This document shows positions 1 to 64,000 of a stretch of 64,000 nucleotides of DNA, one piece after another (position 1 is the first letter of the stretch; each line of letters opens with the position of its first letter). A program made the position numbers and the translations under genes. Under the pieces are notes generated by a model. That model was not told where the DNA came from. It made no database searches and saw only the letters and a list, made by a program, of their open reading frames with translations. This DNA comes from Somniosus microcephalus. Lineage: Eukaryota. The stretch covers positions 40,362,001-40,426,000 of the forward strand of contig JBMRGM010000038.1 of the NCBI GenBank assembly GCA_052327205.1. The letters are read 5' to 3'.

Positions 1-240
1 CACCCAGAGAGTGGTGAACCTGTGGAATTCTCTACCACAGAAGGCAGTAGAGGCCAATTCATTAAATATATTCAAGAAGGAGTTGGATATATTTCTCAAG
101 GCTAAAGGGATCAAGGGGTATGGGGAGAAAGCAGGGACCGGGTACTGAATTTGGATGATCAGCCATGATCGCATTGAATGGCGGAGCAGGCTCGAGGGGC
201 TGAATGGCCTACTCCTGCTCCTATCCTCTATGTTTCTATG
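1..240 (+). mobile_element. CR1 LINE 3' end (young subfamily)
   Basis: Encodes ...TQRVVNLWNSLPQKAVEANSLNIFKKELD...GY*, then the 3' UTR and TATGTTTC tail; near-identical to copies at 2001-2536 and 30715-31665. Confidence 0.85.
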
Positions 241-560
241 TGCCAAGTCCCGTTCACCCATCAGCCCCTGTGCTCGCTGACCTACACTGGCTCCCGGTCC
301 GGCAACTCCTTGATTTTAAAAATTCTCATCCTCGTGTTCAAATCGCTCCATGGCCTCGGTGCGCCGGTGGTGGAGGGAATGAATGTTTAAGGTGGTGGAT
401 GGGGTGCCGATCACGCGGGCTGCTTTGTCCTGGATGGCGTCGAGCTTCTTGAGTGTTGTTGGAGCTACACCCATCCAGGCAAGTGGAAAATTCCATCACA
501 CTCCTTACTTGTGCCTTGTAGATGGTGGAAAGGCTTTGGGGAGTCAGGAGATGAGACACT
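241..560. mobile_element. Abutting L2-like LINE fragments (+ 241-357, - 358-560)
   Basis: 241-357 matches 11845-11930; 358-560 is the reverse complement of the LINE at 14500-14710. Confidence 0.65.
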
Positions 561-837
561 GCTGAAGACGATGGCCTTAGCTTTCTCAGTGTTGAGCTGG
601 ACTAACCAGGTAGAGAAGGCGTGACCGGTGGTGGACTGGTAGAGTTGGGTGTTATTGGCATACATATGGAGGTTGACCCCCATGTCTGTGAATGAGTCGC
701 CAAGGGACAGTAAGGAAGATGAATTGGGGAACTCCACAGTTGTGCATGGGTGGGAAGAGAAGCCATTGCTGGAGAGCAATCCCACGGAGCTGGACATCAG
801 AGGAATGTTGGAGGAGGAAGGTGTGGTCAGTGTTTAT

Positions 838-1593
838 GGCCCAGAAATTCGGGTCGGGGGCTTCCCGCGGATGCAAGCCCCCGACCTGCACTTACCTAGC
901 GCGCCGGCCATTGTTCTGTGGGCCCGCGTGGGATTGCGATCCTGGGCCTCCTCCAGCTGCCGGTGCGCAGTGCTTGCGTATCCCAGGGGCGCAGTTAGTT
1001 CGATGCGTCCCCTGGGATCACGTGGGCCATGGAGAGCCAATGGTAGCAGGGAATGCTTCATTCATAAGTTTGACAGGACTGTCAAACCTATAAATACTAT
1101 AAGCCCCAAAACATCACTAAAACTTCAAATAATTTTTTTTTTTAATCACATTTTTAAAATAAACTATAAATTACATGAAATAACTATTTTAAACAATAAT
1201 TTAAATTTTTGAAAAAATTAATTACATTTTCTAACAGGGCTAAAAATAAACTTACCTTTCTTTAAAGTATTTAAAAATAATAAACCTGTGGAAAAAATGT
1301 TTTAATTTTAATTAATTCACCTTGTAAAAAGCAAGCCTTGCGACTGCTTTTTACATGTCTAACTTCTGGAGACTTACCCTCCCGGGAAAACCTGCAAAAA
1401 AAAACGTAAGTTCGATGCGCCCGCGCTGCCTCTCCCGCGCACGCATTCGACTTCTGAACCCCTTCGTTCAGGGGAACGGAAGTGCCGGTTTCCCCGCGCA
1501 TGCGCAGTGCATGCACGAAACCGGCACTTCCATTGGGCTTACGGGTGAGTACCCCCGTGCGTACTCACCCGTGGAGACCCGAATTTCTGGGCC
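838..1593. mobile_element. Non-autonomous TIR element (PIF/Harbinger-like MITE)
   Basis: Perfect terminal inverted repeats GGCCCAGAAATTCGGGTC ... GACCCGAATTTCTGGGCC, AT-rich core, no transposase; TSD not clean. Confidence 0.7.
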
Positions 1594-1689
1594 AAATGTC
1601 GTTAAACAAGTTTGCTGAAAGCACACAGGTTCTGCTTCTTACCTTGTTATAGGGCAATCTCCTAATCTTGGCTGAGTCACCTGACAGAA

Positions 1690-1981
1690 AGAAAGAAAGA
1701 CTTGCATTTATATAGTGCCGCCAATGAAGTGTAGTCACTGTTGTAATGTAGGAAACGCAACAGACAATTTGCGCACAGCAAGGTCCCACAAACGACAGTG
1801 AGATACTGACCAGATCATTTGTTTTAGTGATGTTGGTAGAGGGATAACAGTGCAGCGCTCCCTCAGTACTGCACTGGAGTGTCAGCCTAGATTTTTGCAC
1901 TCAAGCCTCAGGAGTGGGATTTGAACCCACGACCTTCTGACTCAGAGGTGAGAGTGCGACCCACTGAGCCACAGCTGACAC
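1690..1981 (-). mobile_element. tRNA-derived Deu-domain-type SINE, internally deleted
   Basis: Reverse complement of the head (TGTCAGCTGTGGCTCAGTGG...GGTTCAAATCCC) and tail of the full copy at 44152-44620. Confidence 0.75.
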
Positions 1982-2000
1982 TAATGTCTAATAAGTTCTT

Positions 2001-2536
2001 ATCTGAGGAAGGACGTTCTTGCCATGGAAGGAGTTCAGCGAAGATTCACCAGGCTGATACCTGGGATGGCAGGAATGACGTATGAGGAGAGATTGGGTCG
2101 ATTGGGCTTATACTCGCTGGAGTTTAGAAGAATGAGAGGGGATCTCATTAAAACTTATAAAATTCTGACAGGACTAGACAGACTAGATGCAGGAAGGATG
2201 TTCCTGATGGTCGGGGAGTCCAGAACCAGGGGTCACAGTCTAAGGATAAGGGGTAGGCCATTTAGGACAGAAATTAGGAGGAATTTCTTCACCCAGAGAG
2301 TGGTGAACCTGTGGAATTCTCTACCACAGAAGGCAGTAGAGGCCAATTCATTAAATATATTCAAGAAGGAGTTGGATATATTTCTTAAGGCTAAAGGGAT
2401 CAAGGGGTATGGGGAGAAAGCAGGGACAGGGTACTGAATTTGGATGATCAGCCATGATCTAATGGCGGAGCAGGCTCGAGGGGCCGAATGGCCTACTCCT
2501 ACTCCTATCTTCTATGTTTCTATGTTTCTATGTTCT
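2001..2536 (+). mobile_element. CR1 LINE, 5'-truncated
   Basis: ORF 2024-2437 is a CR1 ORF2 C-terminus (EGVQRRFTRLIPG...RRMRGDLI...FFTQRVVNLWNSLP); (TATGTTTC)n tail. Confidence 0.9.
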
Positions 2537-2677
2537 CTGTTTTATTTTCAGGTGCCAATGATAAATCAGCTCCCCCATGGTCAGATTTATTGTGCTCCAA
2601 TATAGATAACCTCAACAAGCAGAACACAACCCATATCAATATTAAGTGCATGATTGAACCAATGCAAGGTACAGCAG

Positions 2678-5600
2678 ATGGACCATTCAGATTTGGGCAA
2701 GTGTGGTCCAAAACACCAGCGGGTGAATTATGACTCCAGAAGTCGAACAAAAGCAGGTGCCACACTACAGGTCTCAGAAGATAGCCATCAAAGGCCAGTC
2801 CTCGATTCTCAAAGACTTGGCTTTGCAACGAATTCATGTGCGGCCTTGGACAAATTTCGACAGAGGATGGATTCAGGAATGGCAAGACTAAGGCAGAATC
2901 ATAGCAAACCATCTTCAAGTCCTCAGAGCCGAGAAGCTATAACAAGGAAGCATGGTCCACATGGAAAGAAAGAGCCGATAAGGAAAGCAGGGAATGTTTG
3001 TAAACAGAAATTCCAACTCAACTCTGGCCCTGCGTGTGATATTGAAAACCCCAAATTACTGGCGGACTCAACTCCCCGGATTGCAAACTCCCATCCTCGT
3101 TCAGGATTCATATGTACTTCTGAAGGTTTCCAAAAATCTGATGCGATTTCACATGCTAACACTTCTGAACCTCTTCGACCGAAAGATCCAGTAAGATATC
3201 GTCGTGCACATAAAGTATCATTTTCTGACGCACTTCTGTCATACTCTACCCCTTGTCCAAGAAGGAATGTTAAAACATCTCAGCCCCACCCTATATCTGG
3301 TTCATTAAGGCACACTGAAATTTCTCAGTACCGCCCTACCTCTGGTTCAATGAGGCATGCTAAACCATCTCAGTCTCACACTACTTCTGATTCAATGAGA
3401 CGTGCTAAGCCATCTCCGTCTCACTCTATCTCTGGTTTAGTGAAGCATGCTAAAACTTTTCAATATCCCTCTAGCCTTGGTCCAATAAACGCTGCAACAC
3501 CTCAGTCTCACTCTATCCCTGGTCCACTAAGGCACACTGAAACACCCCAGGCTCAGTCTAGCCTTGGTCCACTAAGGCGTACTGAAACATCTCATTCTCC
3601 CTCTAGCGCTGGTCCAGTAAGGCACACTGAAACATCTCGGTCCCACTCTAGCACTGGTCCAGAGAGGCATGCTGAAACATCTCAGTTTCATTCTAAGCCT
3701 GGTCTAATAAGGCATGTAGAAACCCCTCAGTCTCGCTCTACCTCTGGTACAATGAGGCGTGCTATACCATCGCAGTCTCACTCTATCCCTGGTTTAGTGA
3801 AGCATACAAAAACATCTCCTCACTCTAACACTGGTCCAACAAGGCACACTGAAACATCTCACTCTCACTCTAGCTCTGGTCCAGTAAAGCATGGTGACAC
3901 ATCTCATTCTCACTCGAGCCCAAGTCCAATAAAGCAAGCTAACCCATCTCATTTTCACTCGAAACCTAATCCAATAAAGCAAGCTAACACTTTTCATTTT
4001 CACTCTAACGCTGGTCCAATAAAGCAAGCTAACCCATCTCATTTTCACTCAAGGTCTAGTCCAATAAAGAAGGCTGACCCATCACATTCTCACTCTAGCG
4101 CTAGTCCAATAAAGCATGGTGACACATCTCATTCCCACTCTAGCCCTGGTCCAATAAAGCATGGTGAGACATCTCATTCCCACTCTAGCCCTGGTCCAAC
4201 AAAGCATGCTAACATGTCTCATTCTCACTCTAGCACTGGTCCAATAAAGCATGCTAAAACATCTCATTCTCACCCTAGCCCAGGCCCAATAAAGCATGGT
4301 GACACATCTTATTCTCACTCTAGCACTGGTCCAATAAAGAAGGCTGACACATCTCATTCTCACTCTAACCCTTGTCCAATAAAGAATGCTGAAACATCTC
4401 ATTCTCACTCTAACCCTTGTCCAATAAAGAATGCTGAAACATCTCATTCTCACTCTCGCACTGGTCCAATAAAGAATGCTGAAACATCTCATTCTCACTC
4501 TCGCACTGGTCCAATAAAGAATGCTGAAACATCTGATTCTCACTCTCGCACTGGTCCAATAAAGAATGCTGAAACATCTCATTCTCACTCTCGCACTGGT
4601 CCAATAAAGAATGCTGAAACATCTCATTCTCACTCTTGCACTGGTCCAATAAAGAATGCTGAAACATCTGATTCTCACTCTAGCCCTGGTCCAATAAAGC
4701 ATGGTGACACATCTCATTCTCACTCTAGCCCTGGTCCAATAAAGCATGCTGAAACATCTCATTCTCACTCTCGCCCTGGTCCAATAAAGAAGGCTGACAC
4801 ATCTCCTTCTCACTCTAGCCCTGGTCCAATAAAGAATGCTGAAACATCTCATTCTCACTCTAGCCCTGGTCTAATAAAGAATGCTGAAACATCTCATTCT
4901 CACTCTAGCCCTGGTCAAATAAAGAATGCTGAAACATCTCATTCTCACTCTAGCCCTGGTCTAATAAAGAATGCTGAAACATCTCCTTCTCACTCTAGCC
5001 CTGGTCTAATAAAGAATGCTGAAACATCTCCTTCTCACTCTAGCCCTGGTCTAATCAAGAATGCTGAAACATCTCCTTCTCACTCTAGCCCTGGTCTAAT
5101 AAAGAATGCTGAAACATCTCCTTCTCACTCTAGCCCTGGTCTAATAAAGAATGCTGAAACATCTCCTTCTCACTCTAGCCCTGGTCTAATCAAGAATGCT
5201 GAAACATCTCCTTCTCACTCTAGCCCTGGTCTAATAAAGAATGCTGAAACATCTCCTTCTCACTCTAGCCCTGGTCTAATAACGAATGCTGAAACATCTC
5301 CTTCTCACTCTAGCCCTGGTCTAATCAAGAATGTTGAAACATCTCCTTCTCACACTAGCCCTGGTCCAATAAAGAATGCTGAAACATCTCATTCTCGCTC
5401 TAGCCCTGGTCCAATAAAACATGGTGACACATTTCACTCTCAACTTAGCCCTGATACAACAAGACACACTGAACTATCTTGGTCTCATATTACACCTGAT
5501 CCTGTCAGATGTGCTAACACATCGCATTCTCACTCATGCCCTGGTCCAATAAGGCACACTGAAACACCTCCGTCTCCCTCTAGCCCTGGTCCAATAAAGC

Positions 5601-6958
5601 ATGCTAACACATCTCATTCTCCCTCTAGCCCTGATCCATTAAAGCATGCTAGCACATCTCATTCTCACTCATGTCCTGGTCCAGTAAGGCACACTGAAAC
5701 ACTTCTGTCTCACTCTAGCCCAGGCCCAATAAGACACACTGAAACACCTCAGCCACAATTTACCCCTGATCCTGTCAGATGTGCTAACACAGCTCATTCT
5801 CACTCTAGCCCTGGCCCAATAAGAGACACTGAAACATCTCGGTCTCCCTCTAGCCCTGGCCTACTAAGGCACACTGAAACATCTTGGCCTCATTTTTCCC
5901 CTGATCCTGTCAGATGTGCTAACGCAGCTCATTCTCACTCTAGCCCTAGTCCAATAAAGCACATTGAACCACCTCCGTCTCCCTCTAGCCTTGGTCCAAT
6001 AAGGCTCACTGAAACATCTCAGCCTCATTTTACCCCTGATCCTGTCAGATGTGCTAACGCAGCTCATTCTCCCTCTAGCCCTGATCCATTAAAGCATGCT
6101 AGCACATCTCATTCTCACTCATGTCCTGGTCCAGTAAGGCACACTGAAACACCTCTGTCTCACTCTAGCCCCGGCCCAATAAGACACACTAAAACACCTC
6201 AGCCACAATTTACCCCTGATCCTGTCAGATGTGCTAACACAGCTCATTCTCACTCTAGCCCTGGCCCAATAAGAGACACTCAAACATCTCGGTCTCCCTC
6301 TAGCCCTGGCCTACTAAGACACACTGAAACATCTCGGCCTCATTTTTCCCCTGATCCTGTCAGATGTGCTAATGCAGCTCATTCTCACTCTAGCCCTAGT
6401 CCAATAAAGCACATTGAACCTCCTCCGTCTCCCTCTAGCATTGGTCCAATAAGGCGCACTGAAACATCTCAGCCTCATTTTACCTCTGATCCTGTCAGAT
6501 GTGCTAACGCAGCTCATTCTCACTCTAGCCCTAGTCCAATAAAACACATTGAACCTCCTCCGTCTCCCTCTAGCATTGGTCCAATAAGGCTCACTGAAAC
6601 ATCTCAGCCTCATTTTACCCCTGATCCTGTCAGATGTGCTAACGCAGCTCATTCTCACTCTTGTCTTGGACCAGCAACAGCTCGGCCTCCCTCTGTCCCT
6701 GGTCCAATGAGGAGTGCTGTAATATCTCAGTCTCATTCTAAGCCAGGTCCAGTAAGATGCGCCAACACATCTCATTCTCACTCTAGCTCAAGTCTAATAA
6801 AGCAAACTCAAGCACATCAATCTAATTTTAGCCATGATGCAATAAAGCATGCGCACAAACCTCAGACTGCTCTTAGCCTAGTTCCAATGAGGGATGCTAA
6901 TACTGCTGACCGCTTTCCAAACTCAGGAGTATTAACAGAACTAGTTGCCCAATGCTGA
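2678..6958 (+). CDS. Uncharacterised ~1426-aa His/Ser/Pro-rich tandem-repeat protein (large, probably terminal exon)
   Basis: 4.3 kb without a stop; first in-frame ATG 2678; ~190 aa unique N-terminus then ~80 diverged 15-aa units; acceptor-like ttttattttcag ending 2551; AATAAA at 7515-7520. No homology recognised. Confidence 0.55.
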   Translation: MDHSDLGKCGPKHQRVNYDSRSRTKAGATLQVSEDSHQRPVLDSQRLGFATNSCAALDKFRQRMDSGMARLRQNHSKPSSSPQSREAITRKHGPHGKKEPIRKAGNVCKQKFQLNSGPACDIENPKLLADSTPRIANSHPRSGFICTSEGFQKSDAISHANTSEPLRPKDPVRYRRAHKVSFSDALLSYSTPCPRRNVKTSQPHPISGSLRHTEISQYRPTSGSMRHAKPSQSHTTSDSMRRAKPSPSHSISGLVKHAKTFQYPSSLGPINAATPQSHSIPGPLRHTETPQAQSSLGPLRRTETSHSPSSAGPVRHTETSRSHSSTGPERHAETSQFHSKPGLIRHVETPQSRSTSGTMRRAIPSQSHSIPGLVKHTKTSPHSNTGPTRHTETSHSHSSSGPVKHGDTSHSHSSPSPIKQANPSHFHSKPNPIKQANTFHFHSNAGPIKQANPSHFHSRSSPIKKADPSHSHSSASPIKHGDTSHSHSSPGPIKHGETSHSHSSPGPTKHANMSHSHSSTGPIKHAKTSHSHPSPGPIKHGDTSYSHSSTGPIKKADTSHSHSNPCPIKNAETSHSHSNPCPIKNAETSHSHSRTGPIKNAETSHSHSRTGPIKNAETSDSHSRTGPIKNAETSHSHSRTGPIKNAETSHSHSCTGPIKNAETSDSHSSPGPIKHGDTSHSHSSPGPIKHAETSHSHSRPGPIKKADTSPSHSSPGPIKNAETSHSHSSPGLIKNAETSHSHSSPGQIKNAETSHSHSSPGLIKNAETSPSHSSPGLIKNAETSPSHSSPGLIKNAETSPSHSSPGLIKNAETSPSHSSPGLIKNAETSPSHSSPGLIKNAETSPSHSSPGLIKNAETSPSHSSPGLITNAETSPSHSSPGLIKNVETSPSHTSPGPIKNAETSHSRSSPGPIKHGDTFHSQLSPDTTRHTELSWSHITPDPVRCANTSHSHSCPGPIRHTETPPSPSSPGPIKHANTSHSPSSPDPLKHASTSHSHSCPGPVRHTETLLSHSSPGPIRHTETPQPQFTPDPVRCANTAHSHSSPGPIRDTETSRSPSSPGLLRHTETSWPHFSPDPVRCANAAHSHSSPSPIKHIEPPPSPSSLGPIRLTETSQPHFTPDPVRCANAAHSPSSPDPLKHASTSHSHSCPGPVRHTETPLSHSSPGPIRHTKTPQPQFTPDPVRCANTAHSHSSPGPIRDTQTSRSPSSPGLLRHTETSRPHFSPDPVRCANAAHSHSSPSPIKHIEPPPSPSSIGPIRRTETSQPHFTSDPVRCANAAHSHSSPSPIKHIEPPPSPSSIGPIRLTETSQPHFTPDPVRCANAAHSHSCLGPATARPPSVPGPMRSAVISQSHSKPGPVRCANTSHSHSSSSLIKQTQAHQSNFSHDAIKHAHKPQTALSLVPMRDANTADRFPNSGVLTELVAQC
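3250..6900 (+). repeat. 45-bp coding minisatellite (GAAACATCTCATTCTCACTCTAGCCCTGGTCCAATAAAGAATGCT = ETSHSHSSPGPIKNA)
   Basis: Period 45 directly visible (TAGCCCTGGT at 4861 and 4906); homogeneous centre, diverged flanks. Confidence 0.95.
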
Positions 6959-7740
6959 AATTTTGGAAAACTTGACTTCAAACCTCTGAAAGGTGCCAAA
7001 TTCCTGGCCCAGTATTAAGCACTCACAGGACACAAATCTTAAAGCCAATATTCAACGGGTCATACGACTGATGTCAGTCTTACTCAACTTGGCCAATTTC
7101 ATTGCTGACCTTCCAAATTCAGGGCTTGATTCGGTTCAACGTCTTCCCTGCTGGCTTATTCCAGAAAATCTTCAGCTGAGAGGGCAACAAAAAAAAAAAT
7201 GAAATGCAGGCCACATCACATACTTCAATAAGGTCGAGGGTCAGTGTGTGAGGACCACTCCACCAGCAATGGGAGTCGGAGGTCAGGAAGAATGGACAAG
7301 TAAAGAGCTGACCAGGACCACCTTCAATTACTTCACGATTGAAGAGCTGGCTGGGGACTGTTAGCCTTTGCTGAACATTTTCCGACATCGAAGTCTTCAG
7401 TACCTTCACTGTTCATCGTCTGTCAAAAAAAAGAATTGGAGATGCTCTACCTCTTTAATTCCCCATGGGGTACTTTATCAGCTATTTTACTGTAACAGGA
7501 AATGTAGTCAGGCCAATAAAGACAGAGCGGAAAACATTATTTTGCTTTCTGTTGTTATTAATGTCGAGTCCAGAATATCAACAACAACTTGCACTTCTAG
7601 AGCGCCATTAACATAGAAAAATAGACCCAAGGCACTTCACAGAGGTGTAGTCAGAGGAAAAATGGACGTCAAGATATTAGAAGGGCTGACCAAAGGCTTG
7701 ATGAAAGAGGTGGGTTTTAAGGAGGGCCTACATAAGAACA

Positions 7741-9029
7741 CTAGCTGGGGAGCCCCGCGTTGCGAGGGCAATTTTGGGGCGCTTGGTCTCCCTGCCCCTG
7801 TGTGTCCCCCCTCTCCCTGTCATGTCCTCTCCCTGTCCTATCCCTCCCTCCCCTCCGCTCCTCTCCCTCCCCTCCCCTCCCCTCCCCTCCTCTCCCTCCC
7901 CTCCCCTCCTCTCCCTCCCTCCCCTCCCCTGTCTCCCTCCCTCCCTCCCCTCGCCCACCCCCACCCCTCCACTCCCCCGCTCCCCCACTCCCCTCTGTCC
8001 CTCTCTCCGGCCCCTCCCCCTGCCTAGCGCCTGAGGTCCGGAGCTGAGGTCCCCCGCGTATCGCGCGGCTGATGGACGGCCGCTGTGGGCGGGCGGGCGG
8101 CGCATGCGCGGTCAGTGCGGGCGGCGCATGCGCGGTCAGTGCGGGCGGCGCATGCGCGGTCAGTGCGGGCGGCGCATGCGCGGTCAGTGCGGGCGGCGCA
8201 TGCGCGGTCAGTGCGGGCGGCGCATGCGCGGTCAGTGCGGGCGGCGCGAGCCCCCCGCGATTTCCCGAGGCTCGCCCCCCCCCTGCGATTTCCCGAGGCT
8301 CTCCCCCCCCTCCCCCCCCGTGATTTCCCGAGGCTCTCCCCCCCCCCCGCGATTTCCCGAGGCTCTCCCCCCCCTGCGATTTCCCGAGGCTCCCCCCCGC
8401 GATTTCCCGAGGCTCTCCCCCCCCCGCGATTTCCCGAGGCTCTCCCCCCCCCCCGCGATTTCCCGAGGCTCTCCCCCCCCCGCAATTTCCCGAGGCTCTC
8501 CCCCCCCGCGATTTCCCGAGGCTCTCCCCCCCCCTATTAAATTGTTATTTAATTCCCTAACACATCATTAAAATATTTACCTTAGTTCCCTAACACACAG
8601 AAAGTGTGGGGGAAAAAATTGTGAAAAATCAAGATGGCGGCCACTCACCTCGGTTCAGAAGGATAAGGCCCGCCCACACACGCACCGATTGGTCGACCGG
8701 TCAGGTCACCGAAGCGTCGGATTGGTCAATCGTCGAGTCACTCGACACTCAACTGTAGGAAGGAACCCGCCATCCGATTGGTGGACCTCGACGTCACACG
8801 GTCGCTAATGAGATGCTAATGAGCGGAACGCTGAACGTTTTTGGGATACCGCGGGCGGGATTTTTGTCCGGCCGAAACGTAAATACGCCTATGACCGGTC
8901 CGGAATCGCAAGCTTTCTTTTGAGGCGACGCGCACGTCGGTACGCTCTGTAACTTTCAAACGTATAGAGAACGGACAGACATCGGGACAGACATCAGGAC
9001 AGACAGAAGAGCCGCTTTATATATATAGA
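7741..9029 (-). mobile_element. Complete non-autonomous Helitron (1289 bp)
   Basis: Minus strand starts TCTATATATATAAAG and ends with hairpin GCCCTCGC-AAC-GCGGGGC then TCCCCAGCTAG; inserted between A and T with no TSD; flanks rejoin to cataagaaca|taagaaataggagcagg, a reverse-strand CR1 tail. Confidence 0.9.
8093..8535. repeat. Two GC-rich tandem arrays inside the Helitron
   Basis: 6 x 24-bp GCGGGCGGCGCATGCGCGGTCAGT, then 10 x ~26-bp GCGATTTCCCGAGGCTCT(C)n. Confidence 0.9.
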
Positions 9030-15010: not shown

Positions 15011-16486
15011 TGTAGGATTCACAAAATTCCCACATTTCCCAAGTTATTCAACAAGGGACCCTGAAGGACAAGTTATGAAATAAGGGAACCCTGAAGGACA
15101 ATGGCTTTTGGACTTTATGGCAAAGACTGCAAGGTTAAAAGCAGGGCCCTGCGCAGCATGTCAAGTTCAAAACTCAAAACTGGGCCTGTGGGAGACAGCT
15201 TTAATTTGTGATTTCAAACCAGACAGCTAAAAGAGACAGAACACGCATTCTTCCCTTTAAAACAAATCAACTCAGGAAGAGGTTTAATCTTGCTCAAAGT
15301 TAAAGCCATCAAGACTATGCATATATAATCGCCTACAGTTCAAACTAGCTACCAAGCCAGGAAGACACCGATTTACATTATGCGTAAACAAACACCAAGA
15401 CATTAAAAACCATTTAACAATGGGACAACCGCCCAAAAACCAGTTAAGGTGAACGACCATAATCACCTTAATGAGCCCGCCAAAAATCAAACAAAGAACT
15501 AGCCCTGATTTGGCGCACTGATAACAAACTCGGAAATAGTATAATTGTAGGCCCACCGGTAACCAAAGGAGCGTTGGGGACAAGCAGGCACATGCTCAGG
15601 GCCAGGTTACTCGAAACTCAAAGAAGCAGATGGAACATCACGGCGAGGAGGCACGGTGGGGCAGGCTCGACCAAAGACGACTAGGCCGCAACCGCAGCCT
15701 TACACAGAGACCGACCACGAGCACCGCAGTAACAAAGGGCCGGGCAAACCATACCTTCAGATCATTACCACTACACAGGTAATGATCTAGGCCACTGCGA
15801 CCGAGCCGACACCGAAGACCGCCAGCCGAACCCCAACCGCAACAAAACTCGACGACCAGACCACCACTAAAAGAACAAAACCCAAAGTTTTCCACTCTAC
15901 AAGATAAAGTACCCAACAAAGACTTTACTCCCTATCTCTAACGGAGAAAAGAAGGTACTCACCCAGATAAATCCACAACCGCGCCCTTACCGCATCTGTG
16001 GACTCCACCCAACTGAAGAATCTTCGCAGATCCTAAGGCTGAGACCACGTGGCGACGGCAGGCCCCAAAGGACACAAAGAGCGAACCCCAAAAACGCAAC
16101 CAGCTTAATTGACAGGATTTGAACTGTCAAGAAACCCCTATTGGTGAGCATAATCCCTGGCTCTTGTAGTGCAATCTAGTTAGGTATTGGGGGTGGGACA
16201 AGGGTAGGGGGATTATTAATGTGATTTTCCCTCATTGTGCCGTGTGTTCCCCATTCTTAATTAATTGTACTTTGTATGCCTGTAATCACTCCAGTAATTT
16301 AAGTGTGTAATTTTAAGTGTGACTTTAAATAAAATACAGTTTTCTTGCACCAAACCAGTTGTCTACTCCAATTCTGTATCGCCACCTGTACCTAAGTCCG
16401 GTGTCTAGAACCCAGGGGTGTGGGAGCGATTTGAACTGCTCAAAAACAGTCAGGGGCAAAGCTGACTGCACACACCGCCCCCTACA
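15011..16486 (+). mobile_element. Solo LTR, 1476 bp
   Basis: Termini TGTAGG...CCTACA; 4-bp TSD CAAG on both sides; AATAAA near 16328; no coding remnant. Confidence 0.85.
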
Positions 16487-17007: not shown

Positions 17008-17633
17008 TGTAGTGATCAATAGCATGTCATTCTATAGTGGACACTAGGTGGAGCTGTGTAGAGCTGTATATAGCTGTACTAGCTGGGGAGCCCCACGTTG
17101 CGAGGGCAATTTAGGGGCGCTTGGTCTCCCTGCCCCTGTGTGTCCCCCCCTCTCCCTGTCATGTCCTCTCCCTGTCCTATCCCTCCCTCCCCTCCCCTCC
17201 CCTCTCTCCCTCCCCTCCCCTGTCTCCTCCCCTCCCCTCGCTCCCCTGCTCCCCTCTGTCCCTCTCTCCGGCCCCTCCCCCTGCCTAGCGCCTGAGGTCC
17301 GGTGCCGTTGCGATAGCGGGAATGCTGAGCGGCGGCCGGCGCCGGGAGCGGGCTCTCGCGGGCGGCGCATGCGCGGTCAGTGCGGGCGGCGCGAGGGGAG
17401 CAGGCAAGACCGGCATATAAGACTACACTACCCAGCTGTATGATATTAAGACTACATTACCCATGAGGCACTAGGCTACCCACAAGGCAACAGTCAAGAT
17501 GGCAGCCTGCACACAGGAGCACACATGGAAGCCTCTGCAGATACTGTACCTAGAGAACGTGTACTGAATAAATGACTAGCTAGAAGCTAGCTGTGTTCAT
17601 AATAAGAATGTCTAGTTATTAATGAACATAACA
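17008..17633 (+). mobile_element. Solo LTR containing a Helitron 3' fragment
   Basis: TGTAGT...ATAACA termini; 5-bp TSD CAAAG (17003-17007 and 17634-17638); AATAAA near 17568. Confidence 0.8.
17079..17395 (-). mobile_element. Helitron 3'-end fragment, same family as 7741-9029
   Basis: A|CTAGCTGGGGAGCCCCACGTTGCGAGGGC... matches 7741 onward; one copy of the 24-bp unit; no 5' TC end seen. Confidence 0.85.
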
Positions 17634-20874: not shown

Positions 20875-21420
20875 TCAAACTCCCAGAGTAAGTCTTGCCA
20901 GACATAGAGAGAGAGTCTCTTTAACTGGAAGGAAAACTTTTCTTTAAGGACTACAACTCCCAGAGAGCCTGGCGCACCAACCAAGGTGTTTTTTGCAAAT
21001 GAGAAACTTTTTTTTTCTTGCTTCTTTTCTCCTCAGCGGCGTTTTCCGCCCCACATCTAATTTCAATATCAGCATATTTGAAGCATGCGGCCTACCATTT
21101 TGGAAAAGCCTGGTGAAGCCATCCCTCCGCGACTACAACTCCCAGAAGCCTTCAGCGCAGTGCGCGTGCGCAGTAGCGCGGCACCATTTTAAGTCAATTT
21201 TCTCATTTTTATTTTCACCGCCGAGTCACCGGCGGCTGTTAGGTGACTGGTGAGAACAGTGTTTGACCGCCTCCAGCTAATAATAAATTCGATTTTTTTT
21301 TCCATGGATGAGGCGGCCAGCAGACTACATTTCCCAGCGTGCCCCTGCGGCAGGGGTGAGGCCCGGCGCATGCGCAGTGGTGGTGGGCCGGACCGGACCG
21401 GGGTGTCCATGGCAATGGCG
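20875..21420 (+). promoter_or_regulatory. CpG-rich promoter, probably of the MB21D2-like gene
   Basis: GACTACAACTCCCAG at 20949 and 21131 and GACTACATTTCCCAG at 21323 (ZNF143/THAP11-type motif); GCGCATGCGCA at 21366 (NRF1); donor-like CTG|GTGAGA near 21249. Confidence 0.7.
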
Positions 21421-21844
21421 ACCTGTGGAATTTAAAGCTTCGGGGGAGGGCCCAGGGAAGGAGGTGTCTGCTCCTGGAAACACCGAGCTGGGCCTGTGTA
21501 AGGGGAGGAAGAGGGTTGCAAGGGGAGGGAGGATGAGGATGGAAGCAGGTGTGTGTCTCTTTTAGCCATTGTCCAGGGTGAGATCTGGCTGGCTGAGCTC
21601 TATCCCTTTCCCCTTGGCTGCTGTTTATTTTCTTCTTTCCTTCCCCTCTTCCCACACCCTCAACTCCTTGCTGGGGTGACTTGGCCAAGTGGTCTTTTTC
21701 CCCCCAAGATTTGAGGGCAGGCAATTCAACTGTGGGAGGCATCGCACTCCCATCCTCTCTCTCTTCCCTCCCCCCCGCCGCAGAGCACCCCATCCCATGC
21801 CGGCAGCGAGGGATGCTCTTGTCTTGTCCCGGCCTAGGCAAGAA

Positions 21845-26380: not shown

Positions 26381-26588
26381 ATGACGTCTTTGGCCGGCAA
26401 GGACGCTGCGCCGGGCGCCAAGCCGGCCTTTGCCAAACCGTTGAACGACTTGGATTTCCACTCGGGGGCCCGGATCGAGGAGATTACCAAGCTGATCCAG
26501 GAGTTCGGCAAGCACGAGCTGAGGGACTTCGATGATCAGCGAGCGCTGGAGGTGCACACGGCCAAGGACTTCATCTTCTCCATGCTGG
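26381..26588 (+). CDS. MB21D2: MB21D2-like nucleotidyltransferase, first main coding exon
   Basis: MTSLAGKD...KPAFAKPLNDLDFHSGARIEEITKLIQEFGKHELRDFDDQRALEVHTAKDFIFSMLG resembles the MB21D2 N-terminus (LDFRSGARVEELNKLIQEF...QRALEIHTAKDFIFSMLG, recalled); acceptor ttccag ends 26378; phase-1 donor G|GTGAGT. Confidence 0.92.
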
Positions 26589-38286: not shown

Positions 38287-39551
38287 GACTGGTGCAGAAA
38301 CTGGACCACAAGCTGCCCGTGTCGAACGAGTACCTGCTGCTCTCCGGGGGCGTCCGCGAAGGGGTGGTCGACATGAACCCCAACGAGCTGGGGGACTACG
38401 CCAGGGGCACGGACTACGACGTCGACTTCACGCTGCTGGTGCCGGCGCTGAAGCTGCACGACCGCAACCAGCCGGTCACCCTGGACATGCGCCACTCTGC
38501 CCCCTGCCACTCGTGGCTCAGCCTGCGCCTCTTCGACGAGGGCACCATGGGCAAGTGGAAGGACTGCTGCACGGAGACCGAGCCCGGCGACGGAGGAGGG
38601 GAGGGAGGCAGCTACTACTTCTCGCCCACCAAGGTGGCGGACTGGTTCTTCCGCTCCGTCTCCGCCGTGATCGAGGAGATCCGCCGCCACCCCCAGCGGG
38701 GCGTGCCCGGGGTGGCGGCGGTGGCGAAAAACGGCACGGTGGTCTCGGTCATCCTGAGCGTGGGCCGCAGCCGCCTGCTGTACGACATCGTGCCCGTGGT
38801 GTCCTTCAAGGGCTGGCCGGCCGTGGCCCAGAACTGGCTGATGGAGAACCACTTCTGGGACGGCAAGATCACGGAGGAGGAGGTGATCAGCGGCTTCTAC
38901 CTGGTGCCGGCCTGCTCCTGCCTGGGCAACCGGGACAACGAGTGGCGGCTGGCGTTCTCGCGGAGCGAGGTGCAGCTGAAAAAATGTATCTCCGTCCCCC
39001 TGATCCAGGCCTACCAAGCGTACAAGGCCGTGATCATCAAACTGCTCTCCCGGCCCCGAGCCATCAGTCCCTACCATCTGAGGAGCTTGATGCTGTGGGC
39101 CTGCGACCGGCTGCCGTCCAGCTTCCTGTGCCGGGACGAGAACACTGCCCACTTCCTCCTGGGCCTGCTGGATGACCTGGCCCACTGCCTGGTCAACAAG
39201 ACCTGCCCCAACTACTTCCTGCCCCAGTGCAACATGTTCGAGCAGCTGTCGGACAGCGCCGCGCTCCTCCTGGCCTGCCGGCTGTCCTCGGTGCGCTCCG
39301 ACCCGGCCGGCCACCTGCGCAGCGCCGTCGAGCACGCCAAGGCCGCCAACCGGCTGGCCCAGGAGCTGCGGCGGGCCGCACTGGGCCCAGCCTCCTCCTC
39401 CCAGTCGGACGGGGCCCCAGCCGGCGACGACCGCCTGGCCCGCAAGCTCCAACAGCTGGTGACTGAGAACCAGGGCAAGTCGATCTCGGTCTTCCTCAAC
39501 CCGGATGACGTCAGCAAGCCTCACTTCAGAATCGATGACAAATTTTTCTGA
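38287..39551 (+). CDS. MB21D2: MB21D2-like nucleotidyltransferase, large last coding exon
   Basis: Acceptor ctctctgcttccgcag ends 38286 and phase matches the upstream exon (G+GA); VQKLDHKLPVSNEYLLLSGGVREGVVD...YARGTDYDVDFTLLVP...HFRIDDKFF* matches MB21D2 as recalled; joined CDS 1473 nt = 490 aa. Confidence 0.95.
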
Positions 39552-39614: not shown

Positions 39615-40315
39615 CCAACTGCATTGTGGGATACTGGTGGCTGCGCTGTCCCACTGCATTGTGGGATACTGGCAGTCACATTGCCCCCACTGCATTGTGG
39701 GATACCGGCGGCTGCACTGTCCCACTGCATTGTGGGAGGATACTGGCGGCCGCGCTGTCCCACTGCATTGTGGGATACTGGTGGCCGCGCTGTCCCACTG
39801 CATTGTGGGATACTGGCGGCCGCGCTGTCCCACTGCATTGTGGGATACTGGCGTCCGCGCTGTCCCACTGCATTGTGGGATACTGGCGTCCGCGCTGTCC
39901 CACTGCATTGTGGGATACTGGCGTCCGCGCTGTCCCACTGCATTGTGGGATACTGGCGGCCGCGCTGTCCCACTGCATTGTGGGATACTGGCGGCCGCGC
40001 TGTCCCACTGCATTGTGGGATACTGGCGGTCCCACTGCATTGTGGGATACTGGCGGTCACACTGTCCCACTGCATTATGGGATACTGGCGGCCACACTGT
40101 CCCACTGCATTTTGGGATACTGGCGGGCACACTGTCCTACTGCATTGTGGGACACTGGCGGCCGCGCTGTCCCACTGCATTGCATTGTGGGATACTGGCG
40201 GCCACACTGTCCCACTGCATTGTGGGATACTGGCGGTCACACTGTGCCACTGCATTGTAGGACACTGGCGGCTGCGCTATCCCACTGCATTGTGGGATAC
40301 TGGCGGTCACACTGT
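39615..40315 (+). repeat. 35-bp minisatellite (~20 copies) at the start of the 3' UTR
   Basis: CCCACTGCATTGTGGGATACTGGCGGCCGCGCTGT repeated in tandem. Confidence 0.95.
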
Positions 40316-50048: not shown

Positions 50049-50738
50049 TATAATATTTGCATATTGAATTATCATTGGCCTGCAGGCATCTGTAAGGAAT
50101 ACCTATTATATTCACATGCTGAGTTGTCATTGGCCTGCAGGCATCTGTAAGGACTATTGTTTCGAAGACCCAGGCTAGGGGTCCTAATGCCAGGCTTTTG
50201 GCCTCAGGCGCTAGGCAGGGGGAGGGGCCGGAGAGAGGGACAGAGGGGGGAGGGAGGGGGGAGAGGAGGGGGGGGGGGTAGGGGAGGGAGGGATAGGAGA
50301 GGGAGAGGACATGACAAGGAGAGGGGGGACACACGGGCAGGGAGACCAAGCGCCCCAAAATTGCCCACTGACCGCGCATGCGCCGCCCGCCCGCCCACAG
50401 CGGCCGTCCATCAGCCGCGCCATACGCGGGGGACCTCAGCTCCGGACCTCAGGCGCTAGGCAGGGGGAGGGGCCGGAGAGAGGGACAGAGGGGAGTGGGG
50501 GTAGGGGAGGGAGGGAGACAGGGGAGGGGAGGGAGAGGAGGGGAGGGAGGGAGAGGACATGACAGGGAGAGGGGGGACACACGGGCAGGGAGACCAAGCG
50601 CCCCAAAATTGCCCTCGCGCCCCAAAATTGCCCTCGCAACGCGGGGCTCCCCAGCTAGTGCTTAATAAAAGAGTTAAACTGTAATGTTCTGTTGTCCTGC
50701 AATTTATTCTTTTTGTACAAAGTGTGCAAAACAAGACA
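50049..50738 (+). mobile_element. Probable solo LTR inside a CR1 copy (49860-50965), containing Helitron 3' sequence
   Basis: 5-bp TSD GTTAT (50044-50048 and 50739-50743); ends TATAAT (likely mutated TGTAAT)...AAGACA; AATAAA near 50664; CR1 frame rejoins. Confidence 0.65.
50202..50658 (+). mobile_element. Helitron 3' region with internal duplication
   Basis: Ends GCCCTCGCAACGCGGGGCTCCCCAGCTAG|T; the subterminal segment occurs twice (50202-50365 and 50447-50615). Confidence 0.85.
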
Positions 50739-51750: not shown

Positions 51751-52699
51751 TCGATTTAACTTGATGTAGTTCAATGAATTCTGGAAGTGGAATGCATTTT
51801 TACTTTCATTAGTGCCAATTAGCTTTGTGCTGAAGGCCCATGTTCACTAGGAACTAGATTGAGACTTGCAAACCCCATTTGCGTTATGTCCCACAGGTGA
51901 AAGGCAAGTGTCTAACTCACTTTCACCTCCGAGTCAGAACGTTGTGGGTTCAAGTCTCACGCCAGGACCGGAGCACAAAATCCAGGCCGACAGTCCACTG
52001 AAATACTCATCAGATGAGACGTTGGACCGAGGCCCCGTCTGCCTCTTCAGGCGGATGTAGCAAGAACATTCCCCCTGTCCTGGCCAACATTCATCTCTCA
52101 GCCAATCCCGTCAGAAAAAACAGGATAACTCCATCTCATTTGCTGCGTAATCACTGTTGTAATGTAGGAAAGGCGGCAGCTTCCACAAGACAGGGAGCAG
52201 TCCCCCTTGCTCTTCTTCGAAATAGTGGCCGTGGGATCTTTTATATCCACTTGAGAGGGCAGACGGGGCCTCAGTTTAACTGAAGGACAGCATTTCTGAC
52301 AGTGCAGCACTCCCTCAGCACTGCACTGGAGTGTCGGCCTAGATTTTTGTGCTCAAGTCCCTGGAGTGGGACTCAAACCACAACCTTCGGACTCAGAGGT
52401 GAGAGAGAGTGCGACCCACTGAGCCATGACATTTCTTTATTGTCGCTGGGTAAAAATAGCAGGACTCCCATCCCTGTGGAAGTTCCGACACCACATGGAC
52501 TGCAGTGGGTTCAAGGAGAAGGCACACCACCATCACCACCACCATCTCGAGGGCAACTGGGAGCAGGTCAATCAATGCCGGCCTCACCAGCGACACCCAC
52601 ATCCCGAGAATCCATTAAAAGAAAACTTTATGGAGCCACGAGCTCAATGGTCTTCCCGCTCTGTCCTCATGGTGGGAGGTTGTGGGAGGCAGAAGGTGG

Positions 52700-55600
52700 G
52701 CAGGGGTTACAAGGGGGCGGGCCTGGAGTACCAGGGGGCGGGGCTGGAGTATCAGGGGGTGGGGCTGGAGTACCAGGGGGTGGGGCTGGGGTTACCAGGG
52801 GGCGGGGCTGGGGTTACCAGGGGGCGGGGCTGGGGTTACCAGGGGGCGGGGCTGGGGTTACCAGGGGGCGGGGCTGGAGTACCAGGGGGTGGGGCTGGGG
52901 TTACCAGGGGGCGGGGCTGGGGTTACCAGGGGGCGGGGCTGGGGTTACCGGGGGTGGGGCTGAGGTTACCAGGGGGCGGGGCTGGGGAGGGTTACCAGGG
53001 AGCGGGGCTGAGGGTTACCAGTGGGCGGGGCTGGGGTTACCAGGGGGCGGGGCTGGGGAGGGTTACCAGGGGGCGGGGCGGGGCTGAGGGTTACCAGTGG
53101 GCGGGGCTGGGGTTACCACGGGGCGGGGCTGGGGTTACCAGGGGCGGGGCTGGGGTTACCAGGGGGCGGGGCTGAGGGTTACCAGGGGGCGGGGCTGAGG
53201 GTTTCCAGGGGGTGGGGCTGGGGTTACCAGGGGGGCGGGGCTGAGGGTTACCGGGGGCGGGGCTGGGGTTACCAGGGGCGGGGCTGGGGTTACCAGGGGG
53301 GCGGGGCTGGGGTTACAAGGGGGCGGGGCTGGGGTTACCAGGGGCCAGGGCTGAGGGTTACCAGGGGGCGGGGCTTGGGTTACCAGGGGGCGGGGCTGGG
53401 GTTACCAGCCGGCGGGGCTGAGGGTTACCAGGGGGCAGGGCTGGGGTTACCAGGGAGCGGGGTTGGAGTTACCAGGGAGCGGGGCTGGGGTTACGAGGGG
53501 GCGGGGCTGGGGTTACCAGGCGGCGGGGCTGGGGTTACCAGGGAGCGGAGCTGAGGGTTACCAGGGGGCGGGGCTGGGGTTACCAGGGGGCGGGGCTGGG
53601 GTTACCGGGGGCGGGGCTGGGGTTACCGGGGGCGGGGCTGGGGTTACCAGGGGGCGGGGCTGGGGAGGGTTACCAGGGGGCGGGGCTGGGTAGGGTTACC
53701 AGGGAGCGGGGCTGAGGGTTACCAGTGGGCAGGGCTGGGGTTACCAGGGGGCGGGGCTGGGGAGGGTTACCAGGGGGCGGGGCTGGGTAGGGTTACCAGG
53801 GAGCGGGGCTGAGGGTTACCAGTGGGCGGTGCTGGGGTTACTGGGGGCGGGGCTGAGGTTACCAGGGGTGGGGCTGGGGTTACCAGGGGGCGGGGCTGAG
53901 GGTTTCCAGGGGGTGGGGCTGGGGTTTCCAGGGGGGCGGGGCTGATGGTTACCGGGGGCGGGGCTGGGGTTACCGGGGCGGGGCTGGGGTTACCAGGGGG
54001 GCGGGGCTGGGGTTACCAGGGGGCGGGGCTGGGGTTACCAGGCGGCGGGGCTGAGGGTTACCAGGGGGCAGGGCTGGTGTTACCAGGGAGCGGGGCTGGG
54101 GTTACCAGGGGGCGGGGCTGGGGTTACCAGGGGGCGGGGCTGGGGTTACCGGGGGTGGGGCTGAGGTTACCAGGGGGCGGGGCTGGGGAGGGTTACCAGG
54201 GAGCGGGGCTGAGGGTTACCAGTGGGCGGGGCTGGGGTTACCAGGGGGCGGGGCTGGGGAGGGTTACCAGGGGGCGGGGCGGGGCTGAGGGTTACCAGTG
54301 GGCGGGGCTGGGGTTACCACGGGGCGGGGCTGGGGTTACCAGGGGCGGGGCTGGGGTTACCAGGGGGCGGGGCTGAGGGTTACCAGGGGGCGGGGCTGAG
54401 GGTTTCCAGGGGGTGGGGCTGGGGTTACCAGGGGGGCGGGGCTGAGGGTTACCGGGGGCGGGGCTGGGGTTACCAGGGGCGGGGCTGGGGTTACCAGGGG
54501 GGCGGGGCTGGGGTTACAAGGGGGCGGGGCTGGGGTTACCAGGGGCCAGGGCTGAGGGTTACCAGGGGGCGGGGCTTGGGTTACCAGGGGGCGGGGCTGG
54601 GGTTACCAGCCGGCGGGGCTGAGGGTTACCAGGGGGCAGGGCTGGGGTTACCAGGGAGCGGGGTTGGAGTTACCAGGGAGCGGGGCTGGGGTTACGAGGG
54701 GGCGGGGCTGGGGTTACCAGGCGGCGGGGCTGGGGTTACCAGGGAGCGGAGCTGAGGGTTACCAGGGGGCGGGGCTGGGGTTACCAGGGGGCGGGGCTGG
54801 GGTTACCGGGGGCGGGGCTGGGGTTACCAGGGGGCGGGGCTGGGGTTACCAGGGGGCGGGGCTGGGGTTACCGGGGGCGGGGCTGGGGTTACCGGGGGCG
54901 GGGCTGGGGTTACCAGGGGGCGGGGCTGAGGGTTTCCAGGGGGTGGGGCTGGGGTTTCCAGGGGGGCGGGGCTGATGGTTACCGGGGGCGGGGCTGGGGT
55001 TACCGGGGCGGGGCTGGGGTTACCAGGGGGGCGGGGCTGGGGTTACCAGGGGGCGGGGCTGGGGTTACCAGGCGGCGGGGCTGAGGGTTACCAGGGGGCA
55101 GGGCTGGTGTTACCAGGGAGCGGGGCTGGGGTTACCAGGGGGCGGGGCTGGGGTTACCAGGGGGCGGGGCTGGGGTTACCAGGGGGCAGGGCTGGGGTTA
55201 CCAGGCGGCGGGGTTGGAGTTACCAGGGAGCGGGGCTGGGGTTACCAGGGGGCGGGGCTGGGGTTACCAGGGGGCGGGGCTGGGGTTACCAGGCGGCGGG
55301 GCTGAGGGTCACCAGGGGGCGGGGCTGGGGTTACCAGGCGGCGGGGCTGAGGGTTACCAGGGGGCGGGGCTGGGGTTACCAGGGAGCGGACCTGAGGGTT
55401 ACCAGGGGGCGGGGCTGGGGTTACCAGGGGGCGGGGCTGGGGTTACCAGGGTGCGGGGCTGGGGTTACCAGGGGGCGGGGCTGGGGTTACCAGGGGGCGG
55501 GGTTGGGTTACAAGGGGGCGGGGTTACCGGGGGCGGGGCTGAGGTTACCGGGGGCGGGGCTGGGGTGACCAGGTGGCGGGGCTGGGGTTATCAGGGGGCA

Positions 55601-61600: not shown

Positions 61601-64000
61601 CAGGGGGCGGGGCTGGGGTTACCAGGGGGCGGGGCTGGGGTTACCAGGCGGCGGGGCTGAGGGTTACCAGGGGGCAGGGCTGGTGTTACCAGGGAGCGGG
61701 GCTGGGGTTACCAGGGGGCGGGGCTGGGGTTACCAGGGGGCGGGGCTGGGGTTACCAGGGGGCGGGGCTGGGGTTACCAGGGGGCAGGGCTGAGGTTACC
61801 AGGGGGCGGGGCTGGGGTTACCAGGGAGCGGGGCTGGGGTTACCAGGGGGCGGGGCTGGGGTTACCAGGGGGGCGGGGCTGGGGTTACCAGGCGGCGGGG
61901 CTGAGGGTCACCAGGGGGCAGGGCTGGGGTTACCAGGCGGCGGGGCTGAGGGTTACCAGGGGGCGGGGCTGGGGTTACCAGGGAGCGGACCTGAGGGTTA
62001 CCAGGGGGCGGGGCTGGGGTTACCAGGGGGCGGGGCTGGGGTTACCAGGGTGCGGGGCTGGGGTTACCAGGGTGCGGGGCTGGGGTTACCAGGGAGCGGG
62101 GCTGGGGTTACCAGGGGGCGGGGCTGGGGTTACAAGGGGGCGGGGCTGGGGTTACCGGGGGCGGGGCTGAGGTTACCGGGGGCGGGGCTGGGGTGACCAG
62201 GTGGCGGGGCTGGGGTTATCAGGGGGCAGGGCTGTAGGTTACCAGGGGGCGGGGCTGGGGTTACCAGGGAGCGGGGCTGGGGTTACCAGGGGGCGGGGCT
62301 GATGGTTTCCAGGGGGTGGGGCTGGGGTTACCAGGGGGCGGGGCGGGGCTGTGGTTACCAGGGGGCTGGGGTTGCCAGGGTGCGGGGCTGGGGTTACCAG
62401 GGGGCAGGGCTGGGGTTACCGGGGGCGGGGCTGGGGTTACCAGGGGGCGGGGCTGGGGTTACCAGGGTGCGAGGCTGGGGTTACCAGGGAGCGGGGCTGG
62501 GGTTACCAGGGGGCAGGGCTGGGGTTACCAGGGAGCGGGGCTGGGGTTACCAGGGGGCGGGGCTGGGGTTACCAGGGGGCAGGGCAGGGGTTACAAGGGA
62601 GCGGGGCTGGGGTTACCAGGGGGCGGGGCTGAGGGTTACCAGGGGGCAGGGCTGGGGGTTACCAGGTGGCGGGGCTGGGGTTACCAGGGGGCAGGGCTGG
62701 GGTTACCAGGGGGCAGGGCTGGGGTTGCCAGGGGGCGGGGCTGGGGTTACCAGGGGGCGTGGCTGGGGTTACCAGGGGGCGGGGCTGGGGGTACCAGGGG
62801 GCGGGGCTGGGGAGGGTTACCAGGGGGCGGGGCTGGGTAGGGTTACCACGGAGCGGGGCTGAGGGTTACCAGTGGGCGGGGCTGGGGAGGGTTACCAGGG
62901 GGCGGGGCTGGGTAGGGTTACCAGGGAGCGGGGCTGAGGGTTACCAGGGGGCGGGGCTGGGGTTACTGGGGGCGGGGCTGAGGTTACCAGTGGGCGGGGC
63001 TGGGGTTACCAGGGGGCAGGGCTGGTGTTACCAGGGAGCGGGGCTGGGGTTACCAGGGGGCGGGGCTGGGGTTACCAGGGGGCGGGGCTGGGGTTACCAG
63101 GGGGGTGGGGCTGGGGTTACCAGGCGGCGGGGCTGAGGGTTACCAGGGGGCGGGGCTGGGGTTACCAGGGGGCGGGGCTGGGGTTACCAGGGGGGCGGGG
63201 CTGGGGTTACCAGGGGGCGGGGCTGAGGGTTACCAGGCGGCGGGGTTGGAGTTACCAGGGAGCGGGGCTGGGGTTACCAGGGGGCGGGGCTGGGGTTACC
63301 AGGGGGCGGGGCTGGGGTTACCAGGGTGCGGGGCTGGGGTTACCAGGGAGCGGGGCTGGGGTTACCAGGGGGCGGGGCTGGGGTTACAAGGGGGCGGGGC
63401 TGGGGTTGCCAGGGGCGGGGCTGGGGTTACCAGGGGGCGGGGCTGGGGTTACCAGGGGGCGGGGCTGTGGTTACCAGGGGGCGAGGCTGGGGTTCCCAGG
63501 GAGCGGGGCTGGGGTTGCCTGGGGCGTGTCTAGGGTTACCGGGGGCGGGGCTGAGGTTACCAGGGGGCGAGGCTGGGGAGGGTTACCAGGGGGCGGGGCT
63601 GGGTAGGGTTACCAGGGAGCGGGGCTGAGGGTTACCAGGGGGCGGGGCTGGGGTTACCAGGCGGCGGGGCTGAGGGTTACCAGGGGGCAGGGCTGGGGTT
63701 ACCAGGGGGCGGGGCTGGGGTTACCAGGGAGCGGGGCTGGGGTTACCAGGGGGCGGGGCTGGGGTTACCAGGGGGCGGGGCTGAGGTTACCAGGGGGCGG
63801 GGCTGGGGTTACCAGGGAGCGGAGCTGAGGGTTACCAGGGGGAGGGGCTGGGGTTACCAAGGGGCTGGGCTCGGGTTACCAGGGGGCGGGGCTGGGGTTA
63901 CCAGGGGGCGGGGCTGGGGAGGGTTACCACGGAGCGGGGCTGAGGGTTACCAGTGGGCGGGGCTGGGGAGGGTTACCAGGGGGCGGGGCTGGGGTTACCA
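52700..64000 (+). repeat. G-rich 22-bp satellite (GGGGTTACCAGGGGGCGGGGCT)n, over 11 kb, running off the window
   Basis: Unit read directly; many variant monomers; extreme G-strand bias. Confidence 0.97.
59715..60214. other. Assembly gap (500 N)
   Basis: Run of N; the round length suggests a scaffolding gap of unknown true size. Confidence 0.97.

Follow-up and report, generated by a model that had tools for sequence, protein, structure and literature searches.

Does a 4.3-kb open reading frame (ORF) built from short tandem repeats in the genome of Somniosus microcephalus belong to a protein-coding gene and, if so, to which one? The ORF lies in a stretch of 64,000 nucleotides (nt) of contig JBMRGM010000038.1 (assembly GCA_052327205.1, positions 40,362,001 to 40,426,000, forward strand), referred to here as the window and numbered from its first letter. 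The analysis below indicates that the repeat exon very probably codes for protein, or did so until very recently. As to its identity, we tentatively favor a real shark gene for a SPEM-like spermatid scaffold, located upstream of TMEM102, with the ORF as its large terminal coding exon, an assignment by analogy that in our estimate falls somewhat short of an even chance.

Frame translation placed the long ORF at 2678-6958 of the plus (+) strand, with 1426 amino acids (aa) and a single terminal stop; its frame is open from 2654 on, upstream of the ATG at 2678. The remaining two + frames contain 89 and 159 stops across this span, and no minus-strand frame stays open for more than 262 aa. No copy of any part of 2530-7000 was found elsewhere within the window by self-comparison. 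Tandem Repeats Finder (TRF) reported a period of 45 nt at 3411-6627 (71.6 copies, 77% matches, 1% indels). In a register-corrected unit alignment the array spans 3266-6892 and comprises 81 units (69 distinct) with 60-98% identity to the consensus, of which 77 are 45 nt, two 42 nt and two 39 nt long. Two extra degenerate units, at 3221 (score 20.6) and 3152 (score 7.5), were recognized with a unit profile whose background maximum was -9.7 over 88,755 positions. Thus, the description of the ORF in a first-pass annotation of this DNA as a 4.3-kb frame of ~80 15-residue units was borne out, with 81 units plus two degenerate ones. The unique N-terminus, put at ~190 aa in that annotation, therefore shrinks to ~158 aa.

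The + strand of the ORF can be divided into five segments. The non-repetitive start of ~158 codons (2678-3151), delimited by the unit profile, would remain open by chance with a probability of ~5e-4. It is followed by degenerate 5' units including two 3-nt deletions (3152-3844) and by a homogenized His/Ser/Lys block (3845-5419), in which adjacent units are 92% identical and NAETSPSHSSPGLIK occurs seven times. A higher-order repeat block with Cys-bearing units (5420-6634) shows periods of 3, 10 and 13 units, its parts 5600-6049 and 6050-6499 being 96.7% identical. Degenerate 3' units with a 12-nt deletion, a short unique tail and the stop codon complete the ORF (6635-6958). An array of this kind would grow via unequal exchange of whole 45-nt units.

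The evidence for coding comes from the indels among the units. A spanning tree of the units contained 338 substitutions and three indel events (3, 3 and 12 nt), all of which keep the frame, and no frameshifts. The earlier statement that the diverged outer units stay in frame holds, the deletions located there all being multiples of 3. As a control, we used 129 pairwise alignments of interspersed repeats in the window, which are not mutually independent. These alignments contained 359 indels, and 337 of them had lengths not divisible by 3, equivalent to 0.094 per substitution (337 per 3575 mismatches). At this rate ~32 frameshifts would be expected in the array, and ~11 at one third of the rate, compared to none observed. 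Four non-coding arrays of the window contained 13, 4, 2 and 0 frameshifting indels per 61, 16, 3 and 2 substitutions, respectively. Note that the ORF was chosen for being open; the indel effect was judged large enough to survive such selection. What looked like two 5-nt gaps was rejected as an artefact of aligning two distant units, both 45 nt long, in which the gaps compensate each other. The missing frameshifts are strong evidence for coding.

Missing stop codons are weak evidence. No stops have arisen among the units, compared to 2.7-3.7 expected (P 0.02-0.06; P 0.05-0.16 when only single-hit codons are counted). The stops said to be built into the other + frames do exist, but they lose their value as coding evidence, because open frames also occur in short non-coding arrays of the window. 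Nor is there a purifying signal at the level of residues. The codon-position bias proposed earlier as a check was absent, with substitutions distributed 121/121/96 over the three codon positions and omega at ~1.3. Synonymous changes were fewer than expected (46 versus 62, under a null that disregards sequence context and with unit trees blurred by conversion), and replacements were no more conservative than random. The lack of frameshifts together with an omega of ~1.3 therefore indicates selection on the frame, not on individual residues; such selection would purge frameshifts while tolerating residue changes. A constrained frame with free residues is the pattern of a disordered scaffold.

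These data also bear on the trivial explanation that the array is a non-coding minisatellite whose 45-nt unit leaves one frame open by chance. The absent purifying signal is what this explanation predicts, and the lack of stops is only mildly improbable under it. However, the missing frameshifts contradict it even at one third of the control rate, as do the 158 further unique open codons and the presence of splice acceptor and poly(A) signals around the ORF (see below). We consider a non-coding minisatellite very improbable.

The predicted product has a mass of 152 kDa and an isoelectric point (pI) of 9.9, with 19.8% Ser, 13.0% Pro, 10.0% His and 8.3% Thr (Ser+Thr+Pro 41%). It contains 142 His and 23 Cys residues, 77 Ser/Thr-Pro (S/T-P) sites, 32 His-x-His clusters and 8 Cys-x4-His-x-His clusters, and position 15 of the unit is basic in 75 of 77 full units. 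The first-pass annotation had assigned both an S/T-P site and an HSH motif to most units. This is correct for the former (51 of 81 units) and not for the latter (28 of 81); SSP is present in 31 of 81 units, and S/T-P plus HSH in 14 of 81. An AlphaFold single-sequence model of residues 1-600 had a mean predicted local distance difference test (pLDDT) score of 39.6, with 553 of 600 residues below 50 and one predicted helix at residues 52-73. The low-pLDDT model fits a disordered product without proving it. Taken with the ~32 frameshifts expected and none observed, it supports the earlier proposal of a real, intrinsically disordered protein.

We next consider how the ORF is embedded in a transcript. 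A pyrimidine tract followed by CAG at 2531-2551 (+) forms a splice acceptor, and the terminal exon probably starts at 2552. Among all AG sites between 1600 and 3300, this acceptor (2551) ranks second by pyrimidine fraction and first by T content. A probable poly(A) signal, the first AATAAA past the stop (7515-7520, +, ~560 nt downstream), is followed by a T-rich element. Acceptor and poly(A) signal therefore suggest a terminal-exon layout, and the ORF probably represents the final exon of a larger gene. The first-pass annotation had overlooked this layout and the strong acceptor preceding the ORF.

The start of translation presents a difficulty. From the acceptor, only the phase-1 frame stays open (frame A; 2551-2730, +); it runs for 59 codons, differs from the frame of the long ORF and overlaps the latter at 2654-2730, while the two remaining frames soon meet a stop. 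Frame A would be open by chance with a probability of ~0.06 per frame. Furthermore, the 126 nt preceding 2678 contain four ATGs, of which two open frames that overlap the start, and the ATG at 2678 has only a moderate start context. One option is that a 1-nt indel in 2654-2730, either an assembly error or a mutation, accounts for the frame break; another is initiation at ATG 2678 behind the four upstream ATGs. A small intron that would link frame A with the ORF (donor at 2669 or 2723 and acceptor at 3104, all weak, with fitting phase) is unlikely because 127-145 open codons would have to be intronic.

Two alternative explanations depend on how the frame break is interpreted. The ORF may encode a lineage-specific orphan scaffold, as in the first-pass annotation, translated from ATG 2678, with 2552-2677 as the 5' untranslated region (UTR), perhaps arisen de novo from a minisatellite. 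The frame being open from 2654, the predicted helix and the lack of a named homolog are consistent with this, and the openness of frame A may mean nothing at its chance level. The upstream ATGs and the moderate context argue against initiation at 2678, and we regard the orphan as improbable. Alternatively, the gene may have been disabled recently, the frame break being a true mutation and the repeat no longer translated, as suggested by the failure of frame A and the long ORF to join and by a young 3' fragment of a long interspersed nuclear element (LINE) just upstream of the acceptor (1998-2527, +; ~93-95% identity to three other copies in the window). Had constraint ceased with the arrival of the LINE (at an assumed divergence of 1.25-2.5%), 5-10 frameshifts would have been expected in the ORF, and none is observed; the loss could, though, postdate this arrival. 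A disabled gene is, in our assessment, distinctly improbable.

The region upstream of the acceptor (1-2527) is mostly transposon-derived, consisting of LINE pieces and a short interspersed nuclear element (SINE) with copies elsewhere in the window. The segment 838-1594, whose ends of ~17 nt match in inverted orientation and whose core is AT-rich, is probably a non-autonomous DNA transposon. Between transposons lies a unique 92-nt island (1595-1687) that holds the best-scoring + acceptor (1652). On the minus strand the island shows what appears to be an exon of 38 nt whose donor fits the consensus, the pyrimidine tract being derived from a SINE tail. A small exon in the island was considered and could not be established.

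Does the protein have known relatives? The repeat region was compared with Pfam, ESM Atlas and PDB, and two large protein libraries were queried with the N-terminal part and frame A. The exact ORF, from 2678 or from 2654, was absent from the protein collection, and none of 265 candidates passed in a word-indexed search with residues 1-200. Against 1.84 billion representatives, residues 1-200 gave a single match (E 1.2e-4, 35% identity in five stretches, query 137-191). The matched query segment is partly degenerate repeat, and the match cluster has four unnamed members, from ENA only. Frame A had no homolog among longer proteins, no Pfam family and no Atlas lead. Pfam (filtered, E up to 1 and 10) returned no family for the whole ORF, for parts of it or for frame A, PDB contained no relative, and Rfam yielded nothing usable over 1-52700. 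Thus, the earlier statement that no known family can be assigned holds across the Pfam, PDB, Atlas and protein-library searches. In the literature, where searches were partly loose and covered few subscription papers, no paper on such a shark gene was among those listed, and a repeat-protein exon under frame selection is apparently undescribed so far.

The only Atlas leads, 'cell surface glycoprotein-like' and 'extensin-like', both scored 0.76 with low recognition, below lead quality. They point toward a real last exon unrelated to SPEM, for example of a secreted or membrane mucin-like protein or of a structural component of the skin, a gland or the egg case, that happens to lie beside TMEM102. 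The Ser+Thr+Pro content and the absence of a SPEM sequence signal in Pfam or Atlas are in line with such a protein. On the other hand, the product is basic and His-rich with Ser exceeding Thr, unlike typical mucin proline/threonine/serine (PTS) domains, there is no signal peptide or Cys-rich mucin domain within the window, and the position of the exon fits SPEM. We consider an unrelated exon unlikely, though a serious alternative.

The position is defined by the downstream neighbor. This gene has its first coding exon, with ATG and GT donor, at 26381-26588 (+) and its last coding exon, encoding a Mab-21 domain protein, at 38287-39551 (+). The latter matched PF03281 and PF20266, and we take the N-terminus encoded by the first coding exon to resemble MB21D2/TMEM102. 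The last exon is 86-90% identical to 'MB21D2-like' of five sharks, 84-88% to that of two rays and 81% to that of Callorhinchus, versus 70-74% to chondrichthyan and tetrapod MB21D2 proper. A tree was built from 37 rows, comprising the window exon and 36 of 120 listed matches, picked as named and spread over taxa. The window exon groups with Pristiophorus (99/98), a placement pointing to a squalomorph shark, and the shark clade containing it is split from MB21D2 and lamprey by a 100/100 branch. All nine TMEM102-labelled rows fall on the side of the window exon, and cartilaginous fishes have a separate MB21D2 clade. Judged from this tree and assuming a lamprey root, the neighbor is the TMEM102 ortholog. 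No further coding exon was recognized between the ORF and TMEM102, where no formal gene prediction was made.

In other sharks the TMEM102 ortholog carries the database name 'MB21D2-like'. The gene is slow-evolving, with a GC content at third codon positions (GC3) of 0.93 versus 0.28 for the repeat ORF. A CpG-rich, promoter-like region with repeated ACTACA motifs (20900-21450), presumably ZNF143-type sites, is the probable TMEM102 promoter with a non-coding first exon. A 35-nt tandem array at 39618-40306, directly past the TMEM102 stop, apparently belongs to the 3' UTR.

The human gene order is NLGN2, SPEM1, SPEM2, SPEM3, TMEM102, FGF11 (excerpts of PMC11939864). In the window, the ORF is located directly upstream of TMEM102 on the same strand, at the mammalian SPEM position, a feature that the first-pass annotation had overlooked. 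We take the human SPEM genes and TMEM102 to be in the same orientation. NLGN2 and FGF11 were not recognized within the window, whose first base lies 2.7 kb upstream of the ORF and whose end falls in a minisatellite. Frame A contains a short motif with Cys (~2632-2667) that may be similar to one close to where the last SPEM exon begins, and human SPEM3 is probably itself a long, repetitive protein. In the excerpted descriptions, mouse SPEM3 is testis-specific, has a transmembrane segment at residues 26-48 and builds a posterior ring fastening the head of the sperm to its tail (PMC13711846), while SPEM1 and SPEM2 are required for cytoplasm removal in mice, SPEM2 having three exons (PMC10904452). 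PF15670 is present in all three mouse SPEMs and SPEM3 is described as conserved among mammals (excerpts of PMC13711846); SPEM genes are testis-enriched and discussed as a contraceptive target (excerpts of PMC10904452 and PMC13711846). A preprint on the naked mole-rat reports SPEM3 as the gene, out of 15, that was recovered from the smallest number of species.

Several observations weigh against the favored assignment to a SPEM-like gene, in addition to the weak stop-codon evidence, the frame break and the upstream ATGs described above. The synteny argument is based on one neighbor, TMEM102. PF15670 matched neither the ORF, whole or in pieces, nor frame A (E up to 1 and 10, weak matches filtered), and no SPEM protein was among the matches to the ORF start or frame A in the protein libraries or ESM Atlas. 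No named homolog was found despite annotated shark proteins in the library; the ortholog is therefore unannotated, lost or very divergent there. Neither the ORF nor frame A contains a transmembrane segment, hydropathy reaching at most 0.18. A Spem2 ortholog was not found in fly, zebrafish or chicken according to excerpts of PMC10904452. Finally, AATAAA occurs 36 times on the sense strand inside the ORF (3484-6846), encoded by Pro-Ile-Lys codons; these internal hexamers are a possible source of prematurely polyadenylated, stop-less transcripts.

The ORF, the constraint on its frame, the lack of constraint on residues, the composition and the identity of the neighbor are direct results, and disorder is a prediction; SPEM kinship, testis expression, a membrane anchor, phosphorylation, metal binding and the status of the ORF as an exon are what we infer in favoring the SPEM-like scaffold. 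Upstream exons beyond the window would supply the membrane anchor, as in SPEM3; the only hydrophobic run in 1-2550 (+) overlaps the LINE tail. The repeat exon would supply a ~150-kDa basic disordered tail that in late spermatids serves as a multivalent scaffold. The charge of the tail would be adjusted by phosphorylation at Ser/Thr-Pro sites, and its clusters of His and Cys would allow cross-linking via zinc or disulphides. We do not assign the shark protein to the SPEM family; it may work in a SPEM3-like manner with or without descent from SPEM3. That the SPEM locus dates to the last common ancestor of jawed vertebrates, with the shark last exon being a giant, independently amplified His/Ser/Pro repeat, is a possibility that we hold to be doubtful. 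Such an ancient locus would escape searches by sequence, conservation being limited to its position, exon layout and frame and to a short motif.

Other features of the window include a G-rich 22-nt minisatellite with more than 500 copies (52698-64000; 11 kb), which contains assembly gaps, reaches the window end and was used as a control. A recurring GC-rich element with internal 24-nt and 27-nt tandem arrays is present in at least three copies (7741-8550, 17080-17400 and 50200-50660). A unique A/C-rich stretch of 1.5 kb with a 29-nt duplication (15011-16450) is possibly a solo long terminal repeat (LTR).

If the shark exon is a SPEM counterpart, a family needed in mice for sperm head-tail integrity and cytoplasm removal would be far older than reported, and internally fertilizing sharks would provide an outgroup showing which parts of the SPEM proteins matter. 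If it is unrelated, the locus would clearly exemplify a 150-kDa repeat protein, so far undescribed, that is selected on frame and not on residues. Frame-selected repeat proteins are of a kind missed by homology-based annotation.

How does the shark exon compare with known systems? Filaggrin/hornerin-type proteins (S100 fused-type) have a giant last exon with Ser/His-rich tandem repeats and are basic, phosphorylatable and fast evolving. The shark exon is likewise giant, Ser/His-rich, tandemly repeated, basic, potentially phosphorylatable and fast evolving, but its repeat is Pro-rich instead of Gly-rich, has a 15-aa unit and occupies a different locus; an S100/EF-hand domain, which would sit in upstream exons, had no Pfam match within the window. 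Mucin PTS domains consist of a single large exon with a variable tandem repeat whose frame is kept while residues drift. The shark exon shares the large size, the variable repeat, the kept frame with drifting residues and, with 41%, the richness in Ser/Thr/Pro. It differs in its 10% His, its pI of 9.9 and its excess of Ser over Thr, and the ORF ends in the same exon without a Cys-rich domain; in the visible exon we found no Pfam domain (vWD, CysD, SEA or CK) and no hydrophobic segment as in a mucin signal peptide. The sperm cytoskeletal cylicins and ODF1 are basic, repetitive and rich in Ser/Thr-Pro, with Cys for cross-linking. The shark product recalls them in being basic and repetitive with many Ser/Thr-Pro sites and Cys present; repeat unit and locus are different, and no similarity was detected. 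With SPEM1-3 (PF15670) the exon shares the locus directly before TMEM102 and probably a layout in which a long last exon lacking known domains carries the bulk of the coding sequence; great length and repetitiveness are probably shared with SPEM3. It differs from them in that the shark window has no PF15670 match, transmembrane segment or detected sequence similarity. In PMC10904452 and PMC13711846 the SPEMs are reported for mammals only, and the 15-residue His/Ser/Pro unit and the frame break are peculiar to the shark locus. The shark repeat exon is not a new kind of system.

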